Source: Clostridiales bacterium (GTDB lineage Bacteria > Bacillota > Clostridia > Christensenellales > Aristaeellaceae). Taken from it: 64,000 bases of DNA. The translations under genes and the position numbers were made by a program. Below are positions 40,360-56,317 of the stretch, piece after piece (positions within the stretch are counted from its first letter, which is position 1; each line of letters starts with the position of its first letter). The stretch is taken from NCBI GenBank assembly GCA_015056145.1, contig SVGY01000014.1, positions 263-64,262 on the forward strand, read 5' to 3'. A model generated the notes under the pieces. That model was not told the origin of the DNA. It searched no databases and saw only the letters and a program-made list of their open reading frames with translations.

Positions 40360-40462
40360 GATGCAAAAAGAAGATACCTTCCCCTCCGATGCATGGAATA
40401 CATATCTGACAGGGAAAAGTATCTGAGGAACGTCTATATTACCAACAAGGAGGAAACAAATT

Positions 40463-41005
40463 ATGAAACCTTTGAAGGGAACCAAAACGGAAGCCAACCT
40501 GATGTCCGCCTTTGCCGGTGAGAGCCAGGCACGCAACAAGTACACCTACTACGCCTCCAAAGCCCGCAAGGAAGGGTATGTGCAGATTGCCAACCTGTTT
40601 GAGGAAACCGCCAACAACGAAAAAGAGCACGCCAAAATCTGGTTCAAGCTGCTCCATGACGGCGATATCCCCACCACCGCCGTGAACCTTGAGGATGCTG
40701 CCGACGGCGAAAACTACGAGTGGACCGATATGTACGCCGGCATGGCCAAGGATGCCTGGGAAGAGGGCTTTGACGAGATCGCCGCTCTGTTTGAGGCTGT
40801 GGCAAAGATCGAAAAGAACCACGAAGAGCGCTACCGCAAGCTGCTCAAAAATGTGCAGGAAGGCATCGTGTTCAGCCGTGATGGCGACATGATCTGGGAA
40901 TGCTCCAACTGCGGCCACATCGTGATTGGCAAGAAAGCCCCCATGCTGTGCCCTGTGTGCAAGCATCCGCAGGCATACTTCATGATTAAGGCCCAGAACT
41001 ATTGA
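40463..41005 (+). CDS. rbr: rubrerythrin
   Basis: Diiron ferritin-like EX2H motifs ([15 protein letters not shown]) and a C-terminal rubredoxin-like CSNCG ... CPVC. Confidence 0.92.
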
Positions 41006-41018
41006 TCTGATGAAATCG

Positions 41019-41067
41019 GCCGTCGGGGCAGCAGGGGGATAACAGGCCCCTGCCATGCCCCGGCGGC
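41019..41067 (+). terminator. GC-rich imperfect hairpin downstream of rbr, without a T-tract
   Basis: GCCGTCGGGGCAGCAGGGGG / CCCCTGCCATGCCCCGGCGGC. Its function as a terminator is uncertain. Confidence 0.35.
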
Positions 41068-41101
41068 TGTTGCATATCGTGGAAATGCGGAGGATGAAAA
41101 G

Positions 41102-42805
41102 GTGCGGGTTGCGCTTATCAATGTAACGGCTTCCGGTGGAACGGGCAAATTCTGCGTGGAGCTGAGCAGGCAGACCATGGAAAGGGGCCATACGGTCCTG
41201 TTTTGTCATGCCCGAAGCCACTGCCCGGGGGATGTGCCGTCCTGCCGGGTGTGCTGGTACAGCGGCGCTTTTGCATTTGTGAAAAGGATTCTCGGCAGCG
41301 GATGGAAGTATATTTCCCGTTTTTTTGGCAGCCTGTGGCGCTATGCCGGGCTGAAATTCGGAAAAACCGGCAGAAAAAAAGCTGCGGAGAAAGGCGAGGC
41401 GGATCTGAAAAACGCCGTTCTTCCCCGCACAGAAGCCCTCCGCAGTGATCTCCCATCCCGGAAACGTCGTGGACGATCGGGCAGGCTGCCTGGCGGCCTG
41501 CGGGTACGGAGCCGTCACAAGCCGGATATAAGAACCCGGATCCAGGACGCAAAAAGAGGGATGGACAAAGGAAAAGTGAAGATGAAGCGGGCCATCCATC
41601 CCCGGACGGAGTTTTTCCGCAGCAATATTAACACTTACACTCATGGGGTCAGGGCAAGGCTTACGGACAGGCAGGGTTTTTTCAGCAAGCAGGCCACCCG
41701 GCGGCTGGTGGAACAGCTCAGAAGTTTTCAGCCCGATGTGATTCATCTGAATAATCTTCACGGATATTATCTGCATATGCCTACACTTTTTTTGTACCTG
41801 CGGGAGGAACAGATACCCGTGGTGTGGACGTTGCATGACCTGTGGGCGGTGACCGGGCACTGCGCCTTCCCCTCTACTGCTGTGGAACCCTTCCTGACGG
41901 ATGCCCAGGAGCAGATGTACCTCAGCTGCGCCGGCGACGCCGCCCGGGAGGCCGAGGTGGATAAGCAGATTTGCCGGGAAGGTTGCCTGCGCTGGCAAAC
42001 CGGCTGCGGGCACTGCGTCATGAAAGGGGAATATCCCAGAAGCTGGTTCCGGGATCAGAGCGCACGGAACTGGCGTGAAAAGCGGGCGCTGTTTTCCGGG
42101 CATCCCTATATGGTGCTTACGGTTCCCTCCCGGTGGATGGAGCAGCAGGTAAGGAAATCTTTTCTTTCCGGATATCCGCTGCACTATATGCCCCACGGGC
42201 TGGATATGAACGCCTACCGGCCCTGCGTGAATGTGGACGAACGCATTGCGCTTCTCAAACGGCTGAAATTGTGGGAAATGCGCTCCAAATATCTGCTGGT
42301 GAGCGTGGCCAGCCTCTGGGAAAGCAGGAAGGGGCTGGAGGATCTGATGGATCTGAAGGAACTCCTGGGAGAAGATTACTGCGTGGTGGCTGTCGGCCTT
42401 GACGAGGATCAGCGGGCAGCCATTCCGGACGGCTCCGTCATTGCCCTGGAGGAAATGGGCAACAGGGCGGACCTGTGCGCCCTGTACACGGCGGCGGACC
42501 TGTTTGTGAGCCTGAGCCGGGCGGAAAGCATGGGTATGCGGCCGCTTCAGGCCATGGCCTGCGGCACGCAGGTGCTCTGCTGGGATGCGACCGCCATGCC
42601 GGAGCTGATTACCAATGACGTTGGCCTGACGGCGGAGCTGGGCAACCTGCAGGACGCTGCGGACAAGGTGCGCTGGTTGTGCGAAAACCCGGCTTCTCCG
42701 GAAGATTGCCGCAGAAGGGCCATGGAATATGAAGCCGGACACAGAAACCGGCAGTTTGTGTACCTTTACGAGGGGATGCATGAAAACGGCCCTGCCGCAT
42801 CCTGA
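41102..42805 (+). CDS. glycosyltransferase (GT4-like) with a ~125-aa Arg/Lys-rich insertion
   Basis: GTG start with a GGAGGA SD. N-terminus VALINVTASGGTGKF. Core motifs PDVIHLNNLHGYY and WTLHDLWAVTGHCAF. The C-terminal half is GT-B-like. Confidence 0.78.
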   Translation: MRVALINVTASGGTGKFCVELSRQTMERGHTVLFCHARSHCPGDVPSCRVCWYSGAFAFVKRILGSGWKYISRFFGSLWRYAGLKFGKTGRKKAAEKGEADLKNAVLPRTEALRSDLPSRKRRGRSGRLPGGLRVRSRHKPDIRTRIQDAKRGMDKGKVKMKRAIHPRTEFFRSNINTYTHGVRARLTDRQGFFSKQATRRLVEQLRSFQPDVIHLNNLHGYYLHMPTLFLYLREEQIPVVWTLHDLWAVTGHCAFPSTAVEPFLTDAQEQMYLSCAGDAAREAEVDKQICREGCLRWQTGCGHCVMKGEYPRSWFRDQSARNWREKRALFSGHPYMVLTVPSRWMEQQVRKSFLSGYPLHYMPHGLDMNAYRPCVNVDERIALLKRLKLWEMRSKYLLVSVASLWESRKGLEDLMDLKELLGEDYCVVAVGLDEDQRAAIPDGSVIALEEMGNRADLCALYTAADLFVSLSRAESMGMRPLQAMACGTQVLCWDATAMPELITNDVGLTAELGNLQDAADKVRWLCENPASPEDCRRRAMEYEAGHRNRQFVYLYEGMHENGPAAS

Positions 42806-42848
42806 TTGGGCCATCAGGAAATATGTTTTGGAAAGGAGAGCGCATTTC

Positions 42849-44900
42849 ATGAAAAAACTGAAATGGCTTTGCCTCATTCTGGCGCTGATGATGTGCCTTT
42901 CCGGCTGTGAGAAACTGAACATTCAGGGGCAGCAGACCGCTACGGCACCCTCGCTGCAGCTTCTGAACATGCCGCCCTATGAGGATGAGGAGGCAGCCTC
43001 TGTGGGCTCTGCCGACGAAGAGGGCAATATGCTGGTGGATCTCTGGATGGATGGCTCGCAGCTTATGGGCGGCATCAACGAGGATCCCACCAGCCTCTAT
43101 CCCCAGACAGGACTTCGTTACCGTCAGGGCGGTTTTCATTACCGGCTTGGCGGAGAGGTGGGCTGGTATGAGGATGTGCTGGGCTGCTTTTTGGAAGCGG
43201 CGGGCGATTCCCGTGTGCGGGTGCTGCGTACCGGCAACGAGCGCATCCCGGACAGTCTGATCACCAGCTATGGCTTCACTGGCACCGAGGAGGAAATGCG
43301 CTCCTATCGGCGGGATCTGATGACCTATGCCATCGATCCCATGCCCAGCATATTTTCCGGGTTTTCTTCGGAAAGTATGGAAAACAGCTTTTATTCCCTG
43401 GGCACGCCCCAGATGAACCAGATGGCCCGCTTTATGGGAAATGGCGGCGCAGATTTGGAAAACCCCGGTAGAACAGAAGAAATGAACGCCCTGCTTACGG
43501 AGTTTGTGGAGGGCTTCCATCAGAAGAACGTACCGCCCCCTGCACAATGGCATGCGGTGGGCAACGACCAGGACAGCCCGCTTTTGTACGCCCTCAGGAA
43601 TCTGGATGTTACAAGGCTTTCTGTTGTTACCTGCGACCCTGCCACCCTCCGCAGGCTTCAGGGCACCCGGGTGGATGGTTCGCCGGTATACTATGTGGAA
43701 GAAATCCTGCGGGAAAGAAAGGCCTTTGATAACGGCATGAGCGTGGGGTTGTATGCTATGCAGCTGGACTATATGGGTCATATGGTCAGTTTCGGTCCGG
43801 CGGATTTTTCGGATTCCCTGATCTGGGGCAAACCGGACTATAACAGCAACACACGGAAAATCAACGGCGTTTTGCCGATGCCCCGGACACTGCTGGTGCT
43901 TGTTATCGGCAGGCCGGAGCAGGTGGAAAGTTATACCGCCGCCCTGAACGCCCAGCTGAATGGAAACCGCAGCCTTTCACAGATGCGTGGCCCGGACGAC
44001 GGCCAGCTCACCTATACTGCCAACAGCCAGACGGTGGTGCAGCAGCCCTTCTATTTTGAATATGAATATACCGGGGTAAAACGCCCGTCGCTGGGATACT
44101 ACACCCATCATACCGCTGGCGCAAAGCTGGAAACCCGCAGCGGCCTTGCCTCCCAGCAGAAGGATGGCCTTGAAATGCTTACCCTTGGCGGAAATGTGGA
44201 CGAAACGCTGGTCTATTCCTGGCCTGCAGAGCAGCTTCCGGACGGCCTGCAGCTGGATCTTTCCACCCTGTCCGGCGCAAGGGTTGAGGTGATTGATTCC
44301 CTGCTGCTTACGCAGATCGTGCCCAACGGCCCGGAAGCCGCTATGGGGGAAAACACGCAGGTGCTCACCCTGCGGGATAAACTGTATTGCTTTGAAAGGG
44401 TGGAATCACCTTTTGAGGGCAAAGAGAAGCAATGCCCCTTTCAACTGGAATCCATCGCCTGGAGCGAGGATGGTTCCCGGCTGGAGGTTCGGGTGAAGGT
44501 GGATCACACCCTGCTGAAAAGCGGGTATTACCGGCTTAAACTGGTGGCGGACGTGACCGGCGAACAGCTGGAATGGCCACTGGTCAGCTGGGCGCAGGAC
44601 GGTACCGGCCTCAGTGTGGAAATATCCAACAGCGAGGTCATTGCATGGGAAAACCTGATGCAGACCCTGACCCGTTACGGTCGTTCCCGCAACTCTATCC
44701 CCACTACTTTCCGGCATGCCTGGGGCAGCTATACGGGCAAGGATTATCAGGGCGTGGAAGTGCCCGATTTTCCGCAGGTGTACAAGGCCCCTGGACTTCA
44801 GCGGCTTTTGGAGCAGATCCGCTCGGCAGCCAACCTGGAAACCGCCCCGCTGATCCGTTGTACCTTTGATGTATTTGTGCCGGAGATCATTGCGCCCTGA
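42849..44900 (+). CDS. lipoprotein of unknown function, first gene of the tubulin-like/actin-like operon
   Basis: ORF 42729..44900 trimmed to ATG 42849 (GGAGAG SD). Signal peptide MKKLKWLCLILALMMCLSGC with lipobox LSGC (Cys codon 42906-42908). Confidence 0.8.
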   Translation: MKKLKWLCLILALMMCLSGCEKLNIQGQQTATAPSLQLLNMPPYEDEEAASVGSADEEGNMLVDLWMDGSQLMGGINEDPTSLYPQTGLRYRQGGFHYRLGGEVGWYEDVLGCFLEAAGDSRVRVLRTGNERIPDSLITSYGFTGTEEEMRSYRRDLMTYAIDPMPSIFSGFSSESMENSFYSLGTPQMNQMARFMGNGGADLENPGRTEEMNALLTEFVEGFHQKNVPPPAQWHAVGNDQDSPLLYALRNLDVTRLSVVTCDPATLRRLQGTRVDGSPVYYVEEILRERKAFDNGMSVGLYAMQLDYMGHMVSFGPADFSDSLIWGKPDYNSNTRKINGVLPMPRTLLVLVIGRPEQVESYTAALNAQLNGNRSLSQMRGPDDGQLTYTANSQTVVQQPFYFEYEYTGVKRPSLGYYTHHTAGAKLETRSGLASQQKDGLEMLTLGGNVDETLVYSWPAEQLPDGLQLDLSTLSGARVEVIDSLLLTQIVPNGPEAAMGENTQVLTLRDKLYCFERVESPFEGKEKQCPFQLESIAWSEDGSRLEVRVKVDHTLLKSGYYRLKLVADVTGEQLEWPLVSWAQDGTGLSVEISNSEVIAWENLMQTLTRYGRSRNSIPTTFRHAWGSYTGKDYQGVEVPDFPQVYKAPGLQRLLEQIRSAANLETAPLIRCTFDVFVPEIIAP

Positions 44901-44924
44901 CGAAACCGCCAAGGAGATGAAAGG

Positions 44925-45581
44925 ATGCAGACCGCTGTAATCACCCCCACGAAGAAGAAAAAGCGTACCCGCATGAGGTACTCCAACCGCTTCAAGGTGC
45001 TTTTGTGCTACCTGGTCAGCTTTGCGTTGCCGCCCCTCTGGCAGTTGGGCAGCCTTTTGCTGATCTATCCCTACCAGCTGAAAAACAGCGCACCGCTGAT
45101 CGCAGAAAATCTGTCTGGCGTTTTTCCTTTTCTGAAAAATATGCTGGAACCATATGTACAGCGGGCTGCTGAACCGGCTGGCGGCCAGTTTTCCGCAGAA
45201 ATGTGGAACCAGGTGCAGCAAAGCAGGGAGAAACAATGGATGCTGTTTTTGCTGGTTCTTTTTGCAGCAGGCTTTGTGCTTACGCTGCTTTTGCAGCTGA
45301 TATGGCGCTGGAGTCATACCCGGGGACTGCAGGGCGCAAAGGCAGTAAATCGTGCCGTGGCCCATTACCGGCTGAGCATGCTGGTGATCCTCCTCATCAA
45401 CGCTGCGCTGGCGGTGGCGGTGTGGCTTTTGGGCGTGCAGTTCATTGCTGGCCGGGGGCTTTGGGATTATCTGACCTATTTCGGCGCTTATGGGCTCAAT
45501 GTTATCGCTGCATTTGTCTGCTTCCGGCTGGCAGCTCCGCCGGCGATCAGCGGCAAAAAGGCGTTCTTTAAACGATTGTAA
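44925..45581 (+). CDS. predicted 4-TM membrane protein of unknown function
   Basis: AAGGAG SD 8 nt upstream. Basic N-terminus (KKKKRTRMR) followed by four hydrophobic segments. Confidence 0.7.
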   Translation: MQTAVITPTKKKKRTRMRYSNRFKVLLCYLVSFALPPLWQLGSLLLIYPYQLKNSAPLIAENLSGVFPFLKNMLEPYVQRAAEPAGGQFSAEMWNQVQQSREKQWMLFLLVLFAAGFVLTLLLQLIWRWSHTRGLQGAKAVNRAVAHYRLSMLVILLINAALAVAVWLLGVQFIAGRGLWDYLTYFGAYGLNVIAAFVCFRLAAPPAISGKKAFFKRL

Positions 45582-45596
45582 GAAGGGAGGGCTTCC

Positions 45597-47714
45597 ATGA
45601 GCTGCTATGTTCTGGCCGTGGGCGGAACCGGCAATAAAATACTGGAAAGCCTTGTCTATTGTGCCGCCATTGACGGTTTTTACACGGTGGATGAGGAAGG
45701 GGCCCGCAGCCCCATCCCCGAGATCCGCATGCTTTCCGTCGATGTGGACAGCGCTTGCGGCAACACAACCCGTGCCAAGCGTGCGGCGGAATATTATGAG
45801 GATATCCGGCAGGCCTACGAGAAGTATCCTGCCCGTCATCCGGGATTCCATACGGCGGTGCTGGCCAGCCGCTGGAATATGAACCTGTCCAAAAGGGCCA
45901 TGTCTGTGGACAAAATGGTGGAAGGCCATCGCAGGGATAAATTGCTCAGCCGAACCATTTTCAGCCGGACGGAATCCTCCCTTGAGTACAGCGAGGGCTT
46001 CCGGGGTCATCCCGACCTTGGTGTACTGTTTTTTTCCGATGTGCTCAATTCTCTGGAACGGCTTCGGGCAGAGGGCCAGCCTGACGAAATGAACGACCTG
46101 CTGGACCGCATCACCGATGAAATGAAGCGGGGAGAAAAAGTGAAGCTGATCCTTTGCGGCAGCATCTTCGGCGGTACAGGCGCATCGGGCATTCCCGCCA
46201 TCGCCAGGTTTCTCAGGGAGTATTTCAGGGACAACAGCCCCCTGTTTGAAATGGCAGCCATGCTGATGCTGCCTTACTACAAGGTTCCGCCATCCTCCCA
46301 GAATGAAGAGATGGAGATCGTGGTGAAGAGCTCCACCTTCCTGGACAAGGCACGCACGGCCCTGCAGTATTACGGTATGGAGGGCATGATACGCTCCGGC
46401 GAAAACGACGAAAAGGGCATCTTTGATGCGCTGTACATGCTGGGCCTGCCTACGGAGGCATTCATCACTACCCGCATCTATTCCACCGGTTCCCAGAGCC
46501 AGGAAAACGACGCACATATGCTGGAATGGCTGGCTACCAGGTGTATATCCCATTTCTTCCGCACCGGCTTCCGGGGCAAGGATGCCCACCACATCGACTG
46601 CTACTATTACCAGTGGCACACGCCTCAGCTGTGCTGGCAGAGCTTTGATCAGGAGGAGGAACTGTACCGCAATGGCTATACCAGCCTCCTGAAGGCGGCG
46701 GCGCTGTTTTTTGCGGAGCTGTACCCCTCTTTGCTGGGCTGTGCCAACGGACACAGAAAGAGCTGTACCCGCATCGGTTACTGCGCACCTTTCTTTTCCA
46801 CATTCCATAAAAAAACCAGCGCGGAGCAGGCAGAACTGGAGAATCTGCTCCAATCGCTGTATCATTTCCTGAATTTCTATTCCAACTGGATGATTCAAGT
46901 GGTGCGCACCATTCCCCCCACCATGAGGGAAAAGCGCATCAGCGAAAACTTGCGCACGGAGGCCGCAGAGAATTATGACCAGCTGGTAAAACGCCGGGCG
47001 CTGCTTACCCAGCGGGAGGAACACAAAGAAGAATCCCGGGCCTGGCAGGAAGAAACCAAGACCTTGCGCAAGGAATACGAGGATATGCAGCAGACCCGCA
47101 GCCAGCTTGCAAAGAAAATCGGCGGATATGCATGGCTGTCTGTGCTGAAGGACGCACAGGACAGCGCCCGGGAAAAGCTGTACCGTCAGGAAGAAAGCAT
47201 TGCAGAGGCAGAAGCCTCCCTGGAACGCATGAACGGCGAAGATGCAGGGCTGGTGGATGCCCAGATGATACGCCAGCAGACGGAACGGCTGGAAACCATG
47301 CGCCGTGCGGCTGTCACCATGGAACTGTGCCGGGAGCAGATCAGCCTGGATATTGAAGCTGCTATCCGGGAAAACGTGGTGCAGCGGGCTCCGGAACAGG
47401 CGGCACAGGATGAGGATGCATTGTCCCGCAACGGCCTGATGGACGCAGCTTTGCTGGAAAAACTCTATCTGTTGCTGAATCAGTACGGCCTGAAACCGGC
47501 CCAGCGCAGCAGCCAGGTTTTTGACGCTGCTGCCATAGAGCTGCAAAAAGGCCTGAACAAAATGAGCATTCAGCGTGTTCCCGACAGGATGGATACCACC
47601 CGGGTTATTGCGGGCCTTGGCGGAGGAACCCTTCGTGGCAGCGGCGCAGAAGGAGCTCTTTGCTCCTTCCTGACAACACTGCTCAGAGCCGTAGGAGAGG
47701 AGGAAGGCCAGTGA
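45597..47714 (+). CDS. tubulin/FtsZ-like GTPase domain protein with C-terminal coiled coil
   Basis: GGGAGG SD. T1-like VGGTGNK (45618-45638), T3-like GFRGHPDLG (45996-46022) and T4 signature GGTGASG (46170-46190). Charged heptad-like region at roughly 47000-47400. Confidence 0.7.
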   Translation: MSCYVLAVGGTGNKILESLVYCAAIDGFYTVDEEGARSPIPEIRMLSVDVDSACGNTTRAKRAAEYYEDIRQAYEKYPARHPGFHTAVLASRWNMNLSKRAMSVDKMVEGHRRDKLLSRTIFSRTESSLEYSEGFRGHPDLGVLFFSDVLNSLERLRAEGQPDEMNDLLDRITDEMKRGEKVKLILCGSIFGGTGASGIPAIARFLREYFRDNSPLFEMAAMLMLPYYKVPPSSQNEEMEIVVKSSTFLDKARTALQYYGMEGMIRSGENDEKGIFDALYMLGLPTEAFITTRIYSTGSQSQENDAHMLEWLATRCISHFFRTGFRGKDAHHIDCYYYQWHTPQLCWQSFDQEEELYRNGYTSLLKAAALFFAELYPSLLGCANGHRKSCTRIGYCAPFFSTFHKKTSAEQAELENLLQSLYHFLNFYSNWMIQVVRTIPPTMREKRISENLRTEAAENYDQLVKRRALLTQREEHKEESRAWQEETKTLRKEYEDMQQTRSQLAKKIGGYAWLSVLKDAQDSAREKLYRQEESIAEAEASLERMNGEDAGLVDAQMIRQQTERLETMRRAAVTMELCREQISLDIEAAIRENVVQRAPEQAAQDEDALSRNGLMDAALLEKLYLLLNQYGLKPAQRSSQVFDAAAIELQKGLNKMSIQRVPDRMDTTRVIAGLGGGTLRGSGAEGALCSFLTTLLRAVGEEEGQ

Positions 47715-50700
47715 AGGAACCGAAAAACAAGCGCCGTATTACCGAGGCAGATAAGGAAATGCTGGATAAGGAAACCCCGTATCTGACCCTGCTGCCTGAT
47801 ATGGACGAGGGCCTGAACATCGGCTACAAGCCTACTCCCGGTATTCAGAGCGACGGCAACCAGAAGCCCATGGAGTGGCTGGATCAGTTTGCCAAATTCA
47901 TCAAAACCCAAGGCGAGGACGTGGGATATTCCATTCCCGATGTGCTGGCCAGCGAACAGCAGCTGCGCCGTCTGGCCCGGCTTCCGGGAGATATTGCCCT
48001 GCGCCATCAGGAAATGGTGGATTACAGGGCGGTGCTTGCTCTGCTCCTTTTGTGGGAAAGCATAGCCGCTGACCCTTCCTGTGCCACGCTGACCATAGAG
48101 CCCATGCTGGAAATGGCGGACGAGGGCAGCTTTATTCACGCCGTTAGCGGCGCACTGCCTGAAAGCCGTGTGCGGGAAGGGTTGTATGTGTTTGCACTTT
48201 CCCGCCCCAAATCTGAAACCCCTGAAAAAACGCCCATCTGCCTGCTTTCCCGCAGTATGGTGCTGATGCCTGCGGCCAACTTGGGGGATCTGAGCAACCT
48301 TCTGCCGCCCTCTGTGGGCTGGTATGACCGCAACCGCAAGCGTTTTACCGACCCCTGCCCCTGGCTGGACGAGGAAATGTGCGCAGTGCTTATCCCCCGG
48401 CTGAGGCTGCTGAAAAGCCTCAACGAAGAGATTGCCTCCAGCTACATCTATTCTCAGGAGGCACAGCTGTGCTCGCTTATCGACCGCTTTATCCGGGATA
48501 TTCTTGCGGGAAGGGAAACCTGGCGGCAAGCCGTCAGAACCGGTGATGAAGAGGCTGCACGGGAACTGCGCACCCGCATTCTGACCATATACGGCCTGGC
48601 AGAGCGGGATCAGCGGTTGCAACTGAATATGTACACCTATCCTGCGGATGCATCCGATGCAGGCAGTAATGTGCTCATGGGTCAATTGATCCATCCGGAG
48701 GAGCCTGCGCCGAAACTGGATGCAGGTGAGGATACGGTGCTCTACACAATGGATGGCGTACCCTTCGCCCGGTTCTCTGCATCTTTCCTGATGGAGCCTT
48801 CCCGTGCCTTTGGCGAGAAGGAGGCGCTTCGCCGTGCAGAGGAAGAGATTGCCCTGCTGGATCAGTATGATGAAGACTGGCGGGCCAATATGGCCAGCAC
48901 ATTGCTGGAACTGTACCAGGACACCCAGGGCAGAACCGGTGTGGATCCGGCGGTTCCGGAGCTCTTGCTGGCGTGGAGCCGGGAATATGCGGCTGCCCCC
49001 CGTTATGGCGACAGCGATATTTTGCTGCGTTATCCGGAGGAAACTTCATCACGCACTCTGTCCCCCTTGCTGGAAAAGCTGTTTGGCCAGGGGGCCGAGG
49101 ATTGCATCCGGGAGCCCTTTTCCGATTGCCTCCTGATGGTGGAAAATGCGGAAACCTGCCCGCTTCCCGGGTGGATGGAGCCTTATTGCAGGCTCCGGGA
49201 TGTGCCCGGAGACCACAGGGTGTATTTTGTGCCGCCCATTTCCAGAGGAATGGCCGCATGGCTTGCCCGCAATGGCGAAAGTAACGATCCTTCCCTGCCC
49301 AGACTGCTGCCGGAAAGCCTGTCCTGCAGGCTTCTGGCAGATCAGCAGCACATTGAAGCAAGCTTTTCCGTTGGTACCCGCAGCGCCAATCAGCAGGGCG
49401 TGCTGGGAAAAGTGAGCTTTGTTCGTACCTACGACCTGCGGGCTCTGCCGGAGGTGGGCGCAGCGGTGACTCTTGCTGCATCTGCTCTGCCCTCGGTTAC
49501 GGTATGGCCCAACATCCGTCTTTCTTCCCAACAGTGGAAGCAGTATTTTGTGCACACCCACGGTGCACATACGCTGGAAGCCTTCACTCTGGACGGTGAT
49601 CAGTGGAAGCGGGGCATTATGCGTTCGGCTCAGGGCTATGACCGGGAGGAAATGAGCCGCCGCAGCTGGCATACTGCCAGAACCACCACCTTCCCGGCCT
49701 ATGTGGCCCTGTGCCGTGGTTCGCTGTGCTTTGGTATGCTGGTGAATGATCTTTCCTGCACACAGCTGCGCTATGAGCAGCCCGCCATCATCAGTGTGGA
49801 CTTTGGCTCCATTGCCACCACCGTGATGATGCGCCAGGGCGACAAGGTTCAGCCGGCCTCCCTGCCAGCCAGCCTGCACGGTGTGCTTCTTTCGGCCACG
49901 GAGGGGCTGGAGGATATCCTCATGGAGGAATTCATCCCCCGCAACGCCCTCACCCCCGGCAGCCCCAGCGAAAGCACCTACTACAGCGTGGTGGACCTTT
50001 TCGGAGAAGGCCCGGCGGATTGGAAAAACGTGCTGGAGGATGGCCATATTTTCTATCCGGAAAGCATGACGGCCTTGATGCGCAAGGATTCCAACACCCT
50101 TTACTACGACCTGAAGTGGAGCGATGAGGAATATGTGCTCAGGTGCCTGAGGCTGTTCCTGAAGCAGATGATGCTGCAGGCATCGCTGGCAGCACGGCTC
50201 TGGGGGTCCGAAAGCCTCAGCTGGCGTGTAAGCGTGCCCGGTGCCCTGCCGCCCCACCGGCAGGAGGCTTATCTGGACATGATGCGTGGCCTTGCCAAGG
50301 AAGTGGCCAAGGAAACGGGCATGCCCCTCAGCAGCGGCTGCCCTGCGGTACTCTATGCGCTGGAAAATCAGGCGGACGGCCTGTACTTCCGTCACCGCAA
50401 CGAGGTGAACGCAGGCAGCGGATACCTGAATCTGGACGTGGGCGGCAGTACCGCCGACCTGAGCCTGTGGCTCCGGGGAGGCAGTCACGCCACGGCGGAA
50501 TGTTCACTGCTGCTGGGTTGCAGGCGGATTCTGTATGCATCCGTGTCCGAAGGGCATATAGAAGATTTTCACCGGGATTTCCTCCGGGGCGACAGCGCTA
50601 TGGTCGGCGCCGCAGCGGGTCTGGTGGAGGAAATGCGCAGCGCAGGCAGCGCCACCCGGGCGCAACAGAAATGCATGCTCCTCATGGACGATTTCTTTGC

Positions 50701-51373
50701 CAGCTACGCAAAACCCATCCGCAAATGCCTTGCGGAATTCCGCTCCCAGGGCCAGATTACCTATACGGAATCGTTGCTGCTGTTCAACTTCGGCTTCCTG
50801 TTCCGGCTTTGCGGCCTGATGCTGCAGCGTTCCTATGAGGATAAGGAACTGCGGGCAAAGCTGCCTCAGCGGGTGGAATTGTGCATTGCCGGCAATGGCG
50901 GTCAGCTTCTGAAAATGTTCTCCCGGGAGCAGATGGAGCGGCTGTGTGGCCTTGCCCTGACCCTTCTGTGCAACCAGCATCCCGTAACGGTGCTGATGCC
51001 GGTGCAGAGCGTTGATCCCAAGCAGGAGGTGGCCCTTGGCCTGCTTCACAGCGAGGGCGATCTGCAAAGTACCCTGCACAGCGTGGAGCGCTGGAATGGT
51101 ACCCTTCTTAGCGAAGACGGCAGAAGCCTCCACGGAGAGGATTCCTTTATGGCGGATTTCCTCCGGGAGTTTGTGCAGGCGTTCCCCCAGGCGGCCAACC
51201 GCATCCTTGGCAACGCCCTGGAAATGGATGACCTTGGGGAAGTGCATCTTGCAGAAGGAGCGCTGATGGAGCTGGAAAACATTCTGGCCAACGAAAACGC
51301 AAAAACGCCCGAAGACAATTTTGGTACCTACATCCGCTGCTTTGCTGCCATGAAGCGGCTTTGGAGGGTGTAA
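47711..51373 (+). CDS. giant protein with C-terminal actin/Hsp70-like (ASKHA) ATPase domain
   Basis: GTG 47711 overlaps the upstream TGA (GTGA), with SD GGAGAGGAGGAAGG. Motifs occur in order: ISVDFGSIATT (49790-49822), ALENQADG (50357-50380), DVGGSTAD (50435-50458), IAGNGGQ (50885-50905). Confidence 0.65.
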   Translation: MKEPKNKRRITEADKEMLDKETPYLTLLPDMDEGLNIGYKPTPGIQSDGNQKPMEWLDQFAKFIKTQGEDVGYSIPDVLASEQQLRRLARLPGDIALRHQEMVDYRAVLALLLLWESIAADPSCATLTIEPMLEMADEGSFIHAVSGALPESRVREGLYVFALSRPKSETPEKTPICLLSRSMVLMPAANLGDLSNLLPPSVGWYDRNRKRFTDPCPWLDEEMCAVLIPRLRLLKSLNEEIASSYIYSQEAQLCSLIDRFIRDILAGRETWRQAVRTGDEEAARELRTRILTIYGLAERDQRLQLNMYTYPADASDAGSNVLMGQLIHPEEPAPKLDAGEDTVLYTMDGVPFARFSASFLMEPSRAFGEKEALRRAEEEIALLDQYDEDWRANMASTLLELYQDTQGRTGVDPAVPELLLAWSREYAAAPRYGDSDILLRYPEETSSRTLSPLLEKLFGQGAEDCIREPFSDCLLMVENAETCPLPGWMEPYCRLRDVPGDHRVYFVPPISRGMAAWLARNGESNDPSLPRLLPESLSCRLLADQQHIEASFSVGTRSANQQGVLGKVSFVRTYDLRALPEVGAAVTLAASALPSVTVWPNIRLSSQQWKQYFVHTHGAHTLEAFTLDGDQWKRGIMRSAQGYDREEMSRRSWHTARTTTFPAYVALCRGSLCFGMLVNDLSCTQLRYEQPAIISVDFGSIATTVMMRQGDKVQPASLPASLHGVLLSATEGLEDILMEEFIPRNALTPGSPSESTYYSVVDLFGEGPADWKNVLEDGHIFYPESMTALMRKDSNTLYYDLKWSDEEYVLRCLRLFLKQMMLQASLAARLWGSESLSWRVSVPGALPPHRQEAYLDMMRGLAKEVAKETGMPLSSGCPAVLYALENQADGLYFRHRNEVNAGSGYLNLDVGGSTADLSLWLRGGSHATAECSLLLGCRRILYASVSEGHIEDFHRDFLRGDSAMVGAAAGLVEEMRSAGSATRAQQKCMLLMDDFFASYAKPIRKCLAEFRSQGQITYTESLLLFNFGFLFRLCGLMLQRSYEDKELRAKLPQRVELCIAGNGGQLLKMFSREQMERLCGLALTLLCNQHPVTVLMPVQSVDPKQEVALGLLHSEGDLQSTLHSVERWNGTLLSEDGRSLHGEDSFMADFLREFVQAFPQAANRILGNALEMDDLGEVHLAEGALMELENILANENAKTPEDNFGTYIRCFAAMKRLWRV

Positions 51374-51390: not shown

Positions 51391-51431
51391 AGGACTGTTG
51401 CGAAGATTTGCTTTGCAACAGTCCTGTTTTT
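51391..51431. terminator. bidirectional Rho-independent terminator
   Basis: AGGACTGTTGCGAAG / CTTTGCAACAGTCCT stem followed by GTTTTT. A T-rich run is also present on the opposite strand. Confidence 0.8.
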
Positions 51432-53181: not shown

Positions 53182-54444
53182 TTATTCTTCAGGTTCCTCC
53201 ACGGGGATGGCGTTATCGCTGACGCCGACGCCAATAAGGGAGGTAACGGTACGCACGAAGGTCTTATCCTTCCACTTGGCCAGGTTGTTCAGCATCCGTC
53301 CACGGAAGATCAGCGCCATGGTATTGCCGCCATCCAGGTTGAAGCCTTCCACCACGCCTCTCTCCAGCATCAGCTGGGTAGGGAAACGCAGACCGGTGCC
53401 TTCGGAATTCTTGGTGCGGCCCTGAACAGAAACCAGCAGGTAATGGTTGGGTTCGATCATGCCAAGAAGCTGGCGGGGGGATTTGGTGTCATAATAGCCG
53501 GCAGGGATGTATTCGTCGATCTGGCCTTCGGAAATGACCACGGGCCCGAAACAGAATACATTCACGGCGCCCAGCGCCAGCAACTCTTCAGAGGTGATGG
53601 TGCTGCTGCGGTAGCATTTGAGCGTGCCATCGGGGAACTGGGCCATCATGTCCAGATTGGGCAGGTTGTGGAGACGCTTGCGGTAGTCGTCATCGCAGAT
53701 GATCTCGCCATTGCGGATGACGATGCCTTCCTGCTCCTTGCGGTTGATGCGGTGGCCGTAGAAGTCGTCGGTAAAGCCGAGGACGTATTTGTTGTTGGTT
53801 GCGATATCGAAGGGGTAGGAAAAACGGGTGCCGGGACGGTCGGGGTTGGTTTCCGTGGTGAGGAACTGCTGTCCGTTGCGCATGAAGATTTCCGTTTCAA
53901 ACCACACCAGCGGCACGGAAGGACGCTCGTAGCGGTTGATAAGGATTTGCAGATCGCCGGAAAGATAGCACCACTGACCGCCTTCGTCATTTTCATAAAA
54001 ATACTCGGAACCGTCGGCAGTATAGCCGGCTTCGTCCAGCTCGGGCACATCGTCCGCCATCAGGGGGCGGGGAGTGGGCAGGGGTTCCGGCGTGGGTTCA
54101 GGGGTGGGGGTGGGCTCCACATAGGGCTGAGCCTGGTCGGAAAAGAGGAAGTCTTTGTCCGCTACGGTAATCACGCCGGTCACTTCCAGACCATTCTGCT
54201 CCTGAAAGGTTTTGACGGTGCGGGTCATGGCGGAGTTGAATTCCCGGTTGAGATTGGTGGTGTTGTAGTAGCCCAGCTCGTAAAGACGCTGCTTGATCTC
54301 TTTGATTTCGGCGTTTTTGTCGCCCTGTTTGTAGAGCACCTTATCGGGCGCAGGGGTCTCTTCAGCTTCCGCACAGGCGGCGCCCACGCAGGCAAGCAGG
54401 GAAAGAATCAGCACGAGAAGGGCAATCAGACGGAATTTTTTCAT
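53182..54444 (-). CDS. secreted peptidoglycan-binding domain protein with phosphodiester glycosidase (NAGPA-like) domain
   Basis: Signal peptide present. PG_binding_1-like segment (IKEIKQRLYELGYY ... TVKTFQEQNGLEVTGV). Pro/Thr/Glu linker. The C-terminal domain ends in FNLDGGNTMALIF. Confidence 0.65.
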   Translation of the reverse strand: MKKFRLIALLVLILSLLACVGAACAEAEETPAPDKVLYKQGDKNAEIKEIKQRLYELGYYNTTNLNREFNSAMTRTVKTFQEQNGLEVTGVITVADKDFLFSDQAQPYVEPTPTPEPTPEPLPTPRPLMADDVPELDEAGYTADGSEYFYENDEGGQWCYLSGDLQILINRYERPSVPLVWFETEIFMRNGQQFLTTETNPDRPGTRFSYPFDIATNNKYVLGFTDDFYGHRINRKEQEGIVIRNGEIICDDDYRKRLHNLPNLDMMAQFPDGTLKCYRSSTITSEELLALGAVNVFCFGPVVISEGQIDEYIPAGYYDTKSPRQLLGMIEPNHYLLVSVQGRTKNSEGTGLRFPTQLMLERGVVEGFNLDGGNTMALIFRGRMLNNLAKWKDKTFVRTVTSLIGVGVSDNAIPVEEPEE

Positions 54445-54447
54445 TTG

Positions 54448-56115
54448 TTAAATCTCCATAATGATAGGAAGAATCATGGGGTTGCGTTTGATCTTTTCAA
54501 AGATGTAGCGGTGCAGTTCATCCTTGACGCGGTTTTTCAGATTCTGCCACTCGCTGCCGTCCAGACGGCCGTATTCGGCCAGAATGGCACGGGTGAGCTC
54601 TCTGCTGGACTCGATGATGTCTTCGTTTTCACGCACATACACAAAGCCACGGCTGATGAGATCCGGGCCGGAAACCAGCACGCCGCTGTCCCGTTCGATG
54701 GCCATGACCACGATGATAAGGCCGTCCTGGCTCAGATGCTTGCGGTCCCGGAGAACCACGTTTCCAACATCGCCGATACCAAGACCGTCCACCAGCACGC
54801 CGCCGGTGGGCACAACGCCGGCGATGCTCAGACTGTTCTGGGACATTTCGATGACGTTGCCGATTTCGGGGATGATGATATTGTTGCTGGCAACGCCCAG
54901 CTGCTCGGCCAGCTCCGCATGCTGCCACAGCTTGGCATATTCGCCGTGGATGGGGATGAAGTACTTTTCCTTGCACAGGGCGTGCAGCAGCTTGATTTCC
55001 TCCTGGCAGGCGTGGCCGGAAACGTGCACCTCACCCAGCTGGCCGTAGATCACGTTGACGCCGCAGCGGTACAGCTGGTTGATAACACGGGAAACAGGCT
55101 TTTCGTTGCCGGGAATGGGGGAGGCGGAGATGATGACGGTATCGGTGGGGCGGATCTGCAGCTTGCGGTGTTCGCCGTAGGCCATACGGGTCAGACCGGC
55201 CATGGCTTCGCCCTGGCTTCCGGTGGTCACCACCAGCACCTCGTCATCGGGGTAGTTGTCCAGATCGTCCACGTCGATGATGTTTTCATCGGGGATGCAC
55301 AATTCGCCGATGGTCATGGCCACCCGGGTGACGTTGACCATGCTGCGGCCGATAAAGCAAACCTTGCGTCCGTACATGGCAGCGGAATCCACCACCATCT
55401 GTACACGGTGGATGTTGGAGGCGAACATGGCCACGATCACACGGCCCTTGGCCTGCTGGAACATATCGATGAAGGTCTGGCCGATTTTGGTTTCGCTCAT
55501 GGTGTGGCCTTTGCGCTCGATGTTGGTGGACTCGCAAAGGAAAGCCAGTACGCCCTCATTGCCAAGCATGGCAAAGCTGGCCAGGTCGGTTACCTCGCCG
55601 TCGATGGGGGTGTAGTCCACCTTGAAGTCGCCGCTGAAGACGATGGTGCCCGCAGGGCAGGTGATGGCGATGGCCACGGCGCCGGCGATGGAGTGATTGA
55701 CATGGATGAACTTGATGTGGAAGCAGCCCAGGTTGATTTCATCCCGGGGATGGATCACATTGAGGGGGATGCCGGCGATGCGGTGCTCCTTCAGCTTCAG
55801 GTCCACCAGCGCCAGGGTCAGCTTGGTGCCGTAAAGGGGCATGGGTACCTGGCGCAGCACATAGGGCGTTGCGCCGATATGGTCCTCATGGCCGTGGGTA
55901 AGCAGCATACCACGCAGCTTTTCTCTGTTTTTAATAAGATATGTTACATCCGGGATGACCAGGTCCACGCCCAGCATGTCTTCCTTGGGGAAGATGGAAC
56001 CGCAGTCCACCACCAGAATATCATCGCCGTATTCCACGACGGTGATGTTTTTGCCAAATTCGTCTACGCCGCCCAGCGGGATGATGCGGAGTTTGGGTTC
56101 GTTGTTTTGCACCAT
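54448..56115 (-). CDS. rnj: ribonuclease J
   Basis: Trimmed to MVQNNEPKLRIIPLGG (AAGGAGG SD). Metallo-beta-lactamase motif HGHEDHIG plus a beta-CASP region. Confidence 0.92.
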   Translation of the reverse strand: MVQNNEPKLRIIPLGGVDEFGKNITVVEYGDDILVVDCGSIFPKEDMLGVDLVIPDVTYLIKNREKLRGMLLTHGHEDHIGATPYVLRQVPMPLYGTKLTLALVDLKLKEHRIAGIPLNVIHPRDEINLGCFHIKFIHVNHSIAGAVAIAITCPAGTIVFSGDFKVDYTPIDGEVTDLASFAMLGNEGVLAFLCESTNIERKGHTMSETKIGQTFIDMFQQAKGRVIVAMFASNIHRVQMVVDSAAMYGRKVCFIGRSMVNVTRVAMTIGELCIPDENIIDVDDLDNYPDDEVLVVTTGSQGEAMAGLTRMAYGEHRKLQIRPTDTVIISASPIPGNEKPVSRVINQLYRCGVNVIYGQLGEVHVSGHACQEEIKLLHALCKEKYFIPIHGEYAKLWQHAELAEQLGVASNNIIIPEIGNVIEMSQNSLSIAGVVPTGGVLVDGLGIGDVGNVVLRDRKHLSQDGLIIVVMAIERDSGVLVSGPDLISRGFVYVRENEDIIESSRELTRAILAEYGRLDGSEWQNLKNRVKDELHRYIFEKIKRNPMILPIIMEI

Positions 56116-56317
56116 GGCGACCTCCTTATGGGGGATATAAGATTCTGTAGCAGCCCTCACCACTGCAAAGCAGTAATAAGCGACTGAAGGAACTCGGTAA
56201 TCAATGGCCTGCACAAAAGATAAAGTAAACATGCAGTACAGCAAAAGCTGTACGCAAAAGAACTTTGAATGGATTTGTACGTCTGGCATAAAGCCAACGG
56301 CCCAAAGATACTACAAT

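Follow-up and report, generated by a model that had tools for sequence, protein, structure and literature searches.

What does a tubulin-like protein do in a bacterium when its gene shares a putative operon with the gene of a giant actin/Hsp70-like ATPase? The question is raised by a locus of a Clostridiales bacterium (Christensenellales, Aristaeellaceae; GenBank assembly GCA_015056145.1), and in particular by the gene at 45597..47714 in a stretch of 64,000 nucleotides of contig SVGY01000014.1 (positions 263 to 64,262, forward strand). This whole stretch is called the window below, and all coordinates are positions in it. A preliminary description, made from the letters of the sequence, had presented the product of the gene as a divergent GTPase of the FtsZ/tubulin type. 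Our analysis shows, from sequence and a structural model, that the protein is a highly divergent, short and peripheral member of FtsZl1/Tubulin_2, i.e. of a known family and not of a new one. New here is the conserved pairing of a Tubulin_2 protein with a giant actin/Hsp70-like ATPase, a transmembrane protein and a lipoprotein, the genes of which make up what we call the cassette. We assign a probability of roughly 55%, a figure that includes the FtsZl1 family assignment, to the reading that the cassette encodes a constitutive, envelope-associated machine with two nucleotide-hydrolysing proteins. The features of the locus are collected in Table 1.

A divergent member of the FtsZl1/Tubulin_2 family

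Two Pfam models connect the protein with the tubulin superfamily. The Tubulin_2 model (PF13809) scores 29.9 bits against a gathering cut-off of 27 and aligns residues 8-238 with positions 5-219 of its 356, while the Tubulin model (PF00091) stays below its threshold at 26.2 bits (E=1.1e-5) and covers residues 165-212, i.e. the S4-T4-H4 segment. The AlphaFold2 (AF2) model (predicted local distance difference test, pLDDT, 86.5; predicted template modelling score, pTM, 0.85) has a core of alternating strands and helices that reaches to about residue 340, and it is purely helical from residue 347 on. In a Foldseek comparison of this model with the PDB the 50 top matches were all alpha-, beta- or gamma-tubulins (probability 1.0, about 345 aligned columns), and in a viral structure library phage tubulin-like proteins ranked first (E 0.02-0.05). 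The match of the predicted structure to the tubulin/FtsZ Rossmann-like fold is weak but specific, and the description of the protein as a divergent relative of tubulin and FtsZ is borne out.

Judged from its motifs, the nucleotide pocket looks intact: T1 (GGTGN) and T4 (GGTGASG, residues 192-198) are kept, as are T2-, T3- and T5-like motifs. The GGTGN loop belongs to the N-terminal segment YVLAVGGTGNKILESL (residues 4-19), and in the model it follows strand 2-8 and leads into a helix; the GGTGASG loop is placed in the same manner between strand 182-189 and a helix. The GFRGHPDLG segment stands immediately ahead of a helix, past an insert of about 40 residues behind strand 87-93. T1 and T3 were assigned by their place in the predicted secondary structure, T3 being the segment that precedes the H3-like helix. 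In an alignment of 84 homologues the invariant positions are G10/T11/G12, D49-V-D51, C54-R59, E133-P139, G142 and G188-G198. The three motifs that had been likened to the T1, T3 and T4 loops are thus real and, as described below, conserved across phyla, SEGFRGHPDLG being at residues 132-142. The expanded distance between T1 and T4, estimated earlier at about 185 residues, was measured as about 182 and takes in the insert before the T3-like motif.

What the protein does not share with FtsZ and tubulin is the C-terminal domain. The model has no beta-sheet domain there, Pfam finds neither FtsZ_C nor Tubulin_C, and a canonical H7-T7 loop with a C-terminal activation domain is seen neither in the model nor by Pfam, which agrees with what had been concluded from the sequence. 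A helix at residues 302-322 with the conserved Q-x-N-x-x-H motif, together with the acidic residues D329 and D334, might be a remnant of H7/T7.

The conservation of the family is, on the evidence of sequence searches, far beyond chance. A word-indexed search returned 195 homologues, all from metagenome-assembled genomes (MAGs) of Clostridia; most of them have a precomputed PF13809 match and some carry the NCBI label 'tubulin-like domain-containing protein'. An exhaustive hidden Markov model search of 1.84 billion cluster representatives gave 1,749 clusters (50% identity) at E<=1e-3 and 1,330 at E<=1e-10, and the proteins found are mostly 480-600 residues long. A scan of 185,579 species-representative genomes gave 442 relatives, and 79 of the loci were fetched. 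The distant homologues are Tubulin_2 proteins of about 500 residues (PF13809, 39 bits) from Nostoc, Sphaerospermopsis, Arthrospira, Thermosynechococcus, Acidobacteriota and Anaerovibrio, and they are only 26-31% identical to the protein of the window. They keep GGTGAK (T1), DxD..GN (T2-like), GFRG(H/R)PxxG (T3-like), GSIFGGTGA(S/A)G (T4), LPYF/Y (T5-like) and Q-x-N-x-x-H. No FtsZ was found in the window or in the fetched loci, and the tubulin-like protein itself shows none of the marks of a canonical FtsZ, i.e. the FtsZ_C domain, the conserved C-terminal peptide or a location in a dcw/ftsA cluster.

As published, FtsZl1 proteins are marked by insertions in the stretch from T1 to T4, by a T6-H7/T7 region that could not be identified, and by a coiled coil that goes together with an alpha-helical C-terminus (Makarova & Koonin 2010, Biol Direct 5:33, PMC2875224), and the FtsZl1 family is the Pfam family Tubulin_2 (Santana-Molina et al. 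2023, PMC9871819). Since the inserts, the missing T7 and the coiled coil with a helical C-terminus all belong to a family that is already described, the protein does not represent a new kind. The earlier statement that it is distinct from FtsZ, TubZ and BtubAB holds; the implied novelty does not, as the family was described in 2010.

The helical C-terminal half

The C-terminal part had been described as a coiled coil of about 230 residues. A charged, coiled-coil-like insert is indeed present at residues 451-605, while the remainder is divided between a helical domain (347-445) and a tail (606-705). In the insert E, R, K and Q make up 42% of the residues; the AF2 model places four long charged helices at residues 448-591, two of which have a significant heptad periodicity, and the pTM of 0.85 suggests that the helices pack back on themselves as opposed to forming an extended rod. 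With a column identity of 20-35% the insert is the least conserved part of the protein. Of the 84 close homologues 29 do without it, i.e. the length class of about 530 residues, and so do all distant ones. Because it is poorly conserved and so often missing, the coiled coil is unlikely to be a core element of assembly and appears, on this sequence comparison, as a dispensable accessory of one clade. The proposal that polymerisation or scaffolding proceeds through the coiled coil as the core mechanism is not supported by this comparison.

There are a few further points on this half of the protein. One Limiplasma MAG (JAZKYW01) holds two divergent cassettes, L036 and L048, with a short-form tubulin-like gene of 58% identity and a long-form gene of 40%. 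As both forms occur in one MAG, they may be paralogous lineages and not simple indel variants. Another observation concerns the tail, in which the conserved segment RVPDR...VIAGLGGG (residues 664-680, window 47586-47636) is weakly similar to the T4 segment of FtsZ (IAAGMGGGTGTG), with an hhalign probability of 3%. The pairing of IAGLGGG with FtsZ T4 is probably due to chance, and we speculate that the segment could be a partner-binding or glycine-rich loop.

A four-gene cassette conserved across phyla

The tubulin-like gene is closely packed with its neighbours. Its ATG is preceded by a Shine-Dalgarno-like sequence, GAAGGGAGGG, a good ribosome-binding site, and ribosome-binding sites precede all genes of the cassette. 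Its stop codon overlaps the GTG start of the giant-protein gene (GTGA), and from this arrangement the two appear to be co-transcribed as parts of an operon. The order lipoprotein, protein with four transmembrane helices (4-TM protein), tubulin-like protein, giant protein is identical in more than 50 Christensenellales loci; no Christensenellales locus of sufficient length lacks any of the four genes, and the identities of the four decrease in parallel. Identical contigs and a 3.4-Mb Limiplasma genome have the same set, with genes for proteins of about 690 and 210 residues, the tubulin-like protein and a protein of about 1215 residues, in differing flanks. The tubulin-like and giant proteins have no hydrophobic segments, unlike the other two.

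The same tendency holds for the distant loci, where a membrane protein of about 160 residues is followed by the Tubulin_2 protein of about 500 residues and by a full-length homologue of the giant protein (about 1080 residues). The profile of the Christensenellales lipoproteins also finds an adjoining open reading frame (ORF) in these distant cassettes (E 3e-7 to 3.5e-3), which in the cyanobacterial loci lies on the opposite strand. Taken at the level of sequence, a module with membrane, tubulin-like and giant genes in this order and an adjoining lipoprotein-like ORF is conserved across four bacterial phyla.

The surroundings of the cassette are less constant in the distant loci, where Zn-ribbon proteins, coiled-coil proteins and a MotA/ExbB-like protein are found as neighbours. 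Where they follow the cyanobacterial cassettes, the Zn-ribbon and coiled-coil proteins were considered as DO-GTPases; Pfam finds a GTPase domain in none of these neighbours. In the acidobacterial locus L081 (15620-18131) a MotA/ExbB-family protein is fused to an apolipoprotein-like helical region and is followed by a small membrane protein, which brings to mind the genes of the MotB/OmpA type in classical FtsZl1 operons. The locus of the window lies among ordinary metabolic genes. In 35 loci the immediate upstream neighbour is a glycosyltransferase of the GT4 family, and in 22-24 loci rubrerythrin and QueH are found on that side. This conserved upstream synteny indicates stable vertical inheritance on that side. 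The GT4 glycosyltransferase may be a fifth member of the operon, linking the cassette to envelope glycan synthesis; its protein carries a K/R-rich low-complexity insert at about residues 80-190.

By Pfam, i.e. at the sequence level, the four cassette proteins, the flanks and the neighbours of the distant cassettes gave no match to a von Willebrand factor A (vWA), DO-GTPase, GAP1, TRAFAC GTPase, kinase or OmpA-like domain. The four cassette proteins had no match in NCBIfam, PADLOC or PHROGs either, the best PADLOC E-value being no better than 0.07. As to the lipoprotein, neither a search of 36 homologues against Pfam nor one of their profile against the PDB sequences gave a match, with a vWA domain or otherwise. 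Behind the signal peptide the lipoprotein has a conserved segment, VDLW(L/M)D(A/G)SQxMGGIN (residues 60-76, window 42849-43100), and its LDASQxMGG part resembles a little the beta-strand and a degenerate metal-ion-dependent adhesion site (DxSxS) of vWA domains, in a family where no vWA profile match is obtained for any of the 36 homologues.

The giant ATPase partner and a natural fusion

The C-terminal half of the giant protein is, according to its motifs and its model, an ATPase domain of the ASKHA (Hsp70/actin/MreB) type with apparently intact phosphate-1, phosphate-2 and adenosine motifs. In the giant-protein family D697-F-G699, D909-x-G-G-x-T-x-D916 and A1060-G-N-G-G (1060-1064) are invariant. 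The AF2 model of residues 21-1220 (pLDDT 86) gave 580 Foldseek matches in the PDB at E<=1e-3, with Hsp70/DnaK nucleotide-binding domains in the lead (1.7e-8) and MreB at 5.6e-7. The sequence matches to the PDB are weak and fall on exopolyphosphatase and FtsA at the phosphate-2 motif, and the Anaerovibrio orthologue passes the MreB_Mbl model (PF06723) with 29.7 bits against a cut-off of 27. In the Sphaerospermopsis locus L071 (17412-19604) a second protein, of 730 residues and encoded a few kb downstream, is paralogous to the C-terminal two-thirds of the giant protein.

A group of proteins of about 900 residues, P0196-P0200, joins parts of the two cassette proteins in one chain. Their Tubulin_2 domain is 32% identical to residues 1 to about 450 of the tubulin-like protein, and the part joined to it is 32% identical to residues 76-423 of the giant protein. 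Because the two parts are fused naturally, these sequences support a direct contact of the tubulin-like protein with the N-terminal region of its giant partner. P0196 (L084, 10001-12709) stands alone immediately behind the genes of a diaminopimelate (DAP) epimerase and an aminotransferase, while in L004, from another Limiplasma genome, a complete cassette lies just downstream of this pair of genes. No lipoprotein, transmembrane protein or ATPase domain is found near the P0196-type fusions, which could be a reduced derivative of the cassette.

A possible function of the cassette

We can now return to the question of what the tubulin-like protein does. In the envelope-associated machine that we favour, the tubulin-like protein would bind GTP and, in the GTP state, self-associate or clamp onto the N-terminal region of the giant partner; GTP binding, hydrolysis and assembly are what we infer for it. 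The 4-TM protein would tether the cytoplasmic assembly of the two NTPases to the membrane and link it to the external lipoprotein, and the assembly might be coupled to this lipoprotein and possibly to the product of the GT4 enzyme as well. The result would be a stable machine that spans the membrane, is inherited with the chromosome and acts on the envelope, either by membrane or wall remodelling or by positioning envelope synthesis, with a logic analogous to that of FtsZ-FtsA or MreB-RodZ. A further step, which we offer only tentatively, is that the module is a previously undescribed trans-membrane machine with tubulin- and actin-superfamily NTPases as an obligate pair, i.e. a third envelope cytoskeleton-like system beside the FtsZ-FtsA divisome and the MreB elongasome. 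In the literature searched nothing relevant was found on a tubulin-like/actin-like operon, or on a tubulin-based anti-phage system beyond the work of Kaur et al. discussed below.

Several points weigh against this picture. The Foldseek scores against the PDB tubulins are weak (E~1e-3, template modelling score 0.25-0.31, root-mean-square deviation 10-12 Å), so that the structure prediction, which was to decide on the fold, names tubulins as its top matches without strong scores. An hhalign comparison of the family profile with Escherichia coli FtsZ or with a 9-sequence FtsZ profile remains at a probability of <=3%, i.e. not significant (the E. coli sequence, queried with its 318 N-terminal residues, agreed with RefSeq at 100% identity; the profile was made from plasmid-borne ftsZ genes). 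At this probability the best local path pairs only T4 and T5, and T1 and T3 are set by position. The protein and its family profile had no tubulin or FtsZ match among PDB chain sequences either, coiled-coil noise apart. As the comparisons of sequences and profiles with FtsZ and with solved structures failed, it is the Pfam models and the fold prediction that carry the superfamily link. Furthermore, the ATPase domain is slightly closer to Hsp70 nucleotide-binding domains than to MreB, and for this reason it may act as a conformational switch instead of forming filaments. In sequence searches no recognisable domain was matched by the lipoprotein or by the first 680 or so residues of the giant protein, and no experimental study of FtsZl1/Tubulin_2 proteins turned up in the literature searched. 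Finally, the distribution across phyla (Christensenellales, Cyanobacteria, Acidobacteriota, Anaerovibrio) is patchy, which would also fit the horizontal spread of a conflict system.

The last point leads to an explanation in which the cassette is an anti-phage or abortive-infection system, with the tubulin-like and Hsp70-like NTPases building large assemblies when an invader is sensed, by which it is confined or the cell is killed; such a mode of action has been proposed for DO-GTPase/GAP1-N2 systems with tubulin components. Kaur et al. (2020, PMC7159879) assigned Tubulin_2 proteins with a C-terminal coiled coil, and separately Hsp70, to conflict systems that are predicted for Firmicutes and Actinobacteria and include extracellular or membrane parts, and two divergent copies in one MAG (L036 and L048) and the variable coiled-coil insert point in the same direction as the patchy phyletic spread. 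However, the tubulin and Hsp70 themes do not overlap in that study (PMC7159879), whereas they co-occur here. No DO-GTPase, GAP1, vWA, fibronectin type III (FNIII), nuclease, protease or TIR domain was detected in or beside the cassette and PADLOC gave no match, the locus lies in conserved housekeeping synteny and not in a defence island, and all four proteins evolve in step, with no hypervariable parts. We therefore regard a conflict function as unlikely.

It is also conceivable, though we think it quite improbable, that the tubulin-like domain is a degenerate, non-polymerising GTP-gated switch or co-chaperone of the Hsp70-like ATPase, with the pair as the driving force by which the lipoprotein, or some other client in the envelope, is folded, inserted or exported. 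This would account for a model that has no T7/C-terminal activation domain, which is needed for polymer-stimulated hydrolysis (PMC2875224), for a giant partner whose best structural matches are Hsp70 nucleotide-binding domains, and for partners that include a membrane protein and a lipoprotein. Against it stand the absence of an Hsp70 substrate-binding domain in the partner and of GrpE or DnaJ among the neighbours, and the remark that all characterised proteins of the tubulin/FtsZ superfamily form filaments (PMC2875224). The reading of the preliminary description, a new kind of GTPase that lies outside the known families of the tubulin/FtsZ type and uses its long coiled coil to polymerise or to serve as a scaffold, we consider very improbable. 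It is true that the protein is distinct from FtsZ, TubZ and BtubAB, with no sequence match to solved structures and with neither FtsZ_C nor Tubulin_C, and that four long charged helices are predicted; but it belongs to a published family, NCBI already labels some of the homologues as tubulin-like, its coiled coil is the least conserved part and is absent from so many relatives, and the pTM speaks for packed-back helices and not for a rod.

If the proposed envelope machine is real, i.e. if the partners act jointly at the membrane, it would represent a new coupling of two ancient cytomotive folds, and a conserved locus of Christensenellales that are abundant in the gut would gain a function. FtsZl1/Tubulin_2 is the most divergent branch of the tubulin/FtsZ superfamily, and its members bear on the question of polymerisation and GTP hydrolysis in proteins that have no T7/C-terminal activation domain. 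The subfamily comprises at least 1,330 clusters (50% identity), the system is compact, with four co-evolving genes, and the natural fusion points to the interacting surfaces. We also point to the culturable or genetically manipulable carriers Arthrospira, Nostoc/Anabaena, Thermosynechococcus and relatives of Christensenella as they are tractable.

Features of the locus

Table 1. Features of the tubulin-like gene, its cassette and its immediate surroundings; coordinates are window positions
Feature	Position	Strand	Remarks
GT4-family glycosyltransferase gene	41102..42805	+	Pfam annotation of called gene; directly upstream of cassette
Lipoprotein gene, 683 residues	42849..44900	+	signal peptide, lipobox LSGC (Cys20); from sequence and hydrophobicity; no recognisable domain
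Small polytopic membrane protein gene, 218 residues	44925..45581	+	about 4 hydrophobic helices, from hydrophobicity; position conserved
Tubulin/FtsZ-like gene, FtsZl1 / Pfam Tubulin_2 family, 705 residues	45597..47714	+	ORF, Pfam, AF2, Foldseek, 195 homologues
Predicted Rossmann-like GTPase-type core, residues 1-345	45597..46631	+	model secondary structure, invariant columns, cross-phylum alignment
T1 loop, G9-N13 (GGTGN)	45621-45635	+	named by position
T2-like motif, D49-x-D51...G55-N56			named by position
T3-like motif, E133-G142	45993-46022	+	preceded by insert of ~40 residues after strand S3; named by position
T4 loop, G188-G198	46158-46190	+	named by position
T5-like motif, L225-P226-Y227			named by position
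Conserved Q302-x-N304-x-x-H307			ahead of H7-resembling helix
Conserved all-helical domain, residues 347-445	46635..46931	+	replaces FtsZ/tubulin C-terminal beta-sheet domain; also in distant homologues
Charged helical (coiled-coil-like) insert, residues 451-605	46947..47411	+	lineage-specific, dispensable
C-terminal helical tail, residues 606-705 (~100 residues)	47412..47711	+	conserved RVPDR...IAGLGGG; Limiplasma-type clade only
Giant cytoplasmic protein gene, 1220 residues	47711..51373	+	GTG start
Regions of giant protein			start disordered; ~80-520 N-terminal alpha/beta; ~530-680 beta-rich
Giant-protein region, residues 76-423	47936..48979	+	fused to Tubulin_2 domain in ~900-residue proteins P0196-P0200
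Predicted Hsp70/MreB-like (ASKHA) ATPase domain, residues ~690-1220	about 49778-51370	+	
Intrinsic terminator	51391..51425	+	15-bp stem and T-run; closes operon

An ORF of 1046 residues runs antisense to the membrane-protein gene and to most of the tubulin-like gene (window 44406-47546, - strand). It was rejected as a coding sequence, since homology, Pfam and gene calls are all on the + strand. Comparable long antisense ORFs occur elsewhere in the window, the GC content of which is 56% (e.g. 40439-42922 on the - strand and 53443-56187 on the + strand), and they look like compositional artefacts, since homology and gene calls are confined to the other strand.

Comparison with known systems

It is useful to compare the general features of the cassette with other prokaryotic systems that contain tubulin-like proteins. 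TubZ, PhuZ, BtubAB and CetZ are, like the protein described here, divergent prokaryotic members of the tubulin superfamily, and the phage tubulin-like proteins are its best, though weak, matches in the viral library. On the other hand, these proteins have a two-domain fold with H7-T7 and a C-terminal domain, which are missing here, and partners of the TubR/TubY or BtubC type are missing as well.

The DO-GTPase/GAP1-N2 systems, as which the Firmicute and Actinobacterial versions of the family were reinterpreted (Kaur, Burroughs, Iyer, Aravind 2020, eLife 9:e52696, PMC7159879), are similar to the cassette in as much as Firmicute Tubulin_2 proteins with a C-terminal coiled coil, membrane or extracellular proteins and a link to Hsp70 appear in the same paper. 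Their DO-GTPase, GAP1, vWA and FNIII genes were not detected here, and the present locus is syntenic and housekeeping-like.

The likeness to FtsZ-FtsA and MreB-RodZ is a functional analogy only: genes of the tubulin superfamily and of the actin (ASKHA) superfamily adjoin each other, and there is a membrane tether together with extracytoplasmic partners. In contrast to FtsZ, the tubulin-like protein has no FtsZ_C domain, T7 loop or FtsA-binding C-terminal peptide and no significant match to FtsZ profiles, and its ATPase partner has 1220 residues with large extra domains and a fold nearest to Hsp70 nucleotide-binding domains.

The comparison with the described FtsZl1 proteins is the closest. Both have an N-terminal nucleotide-binding domain with the T4 motif GGTG(S/A)G and insertions in the T1-T4 stretch, and neither has an alignable T6-H7/T7 or the C-terminal domain known from FtsZ and tubulin; both have a coiled coil, optional in the present subfamily, and an alpha-helical C-terminus, and both lie in operons with genes of membrane or extracytoplasmic proteins. 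The differences are in size, about 900-1100 residues in FtsZl1 and 500-700 here, the subfamily being peripheral to the Pfam model (30-39 bits), and in the partners. The described operons contain vWA proteins, a diverged P-loop GTPase, kinases and OmpA-like proteins (PMC2875224), none of which was detected here by sequence, while the present cassette shows a constant pairing with the giant Hsp70/actin-like ATPase, the small transmembrane protein and the lipoprotein. The closest precedent for this pairing is found in the tables of Makarova & Koonin 2010, where an FtsZl1 gene of Magnetospirillum lies beside those of two vWA proteins and a DnaK-like protein of 1626 residues.

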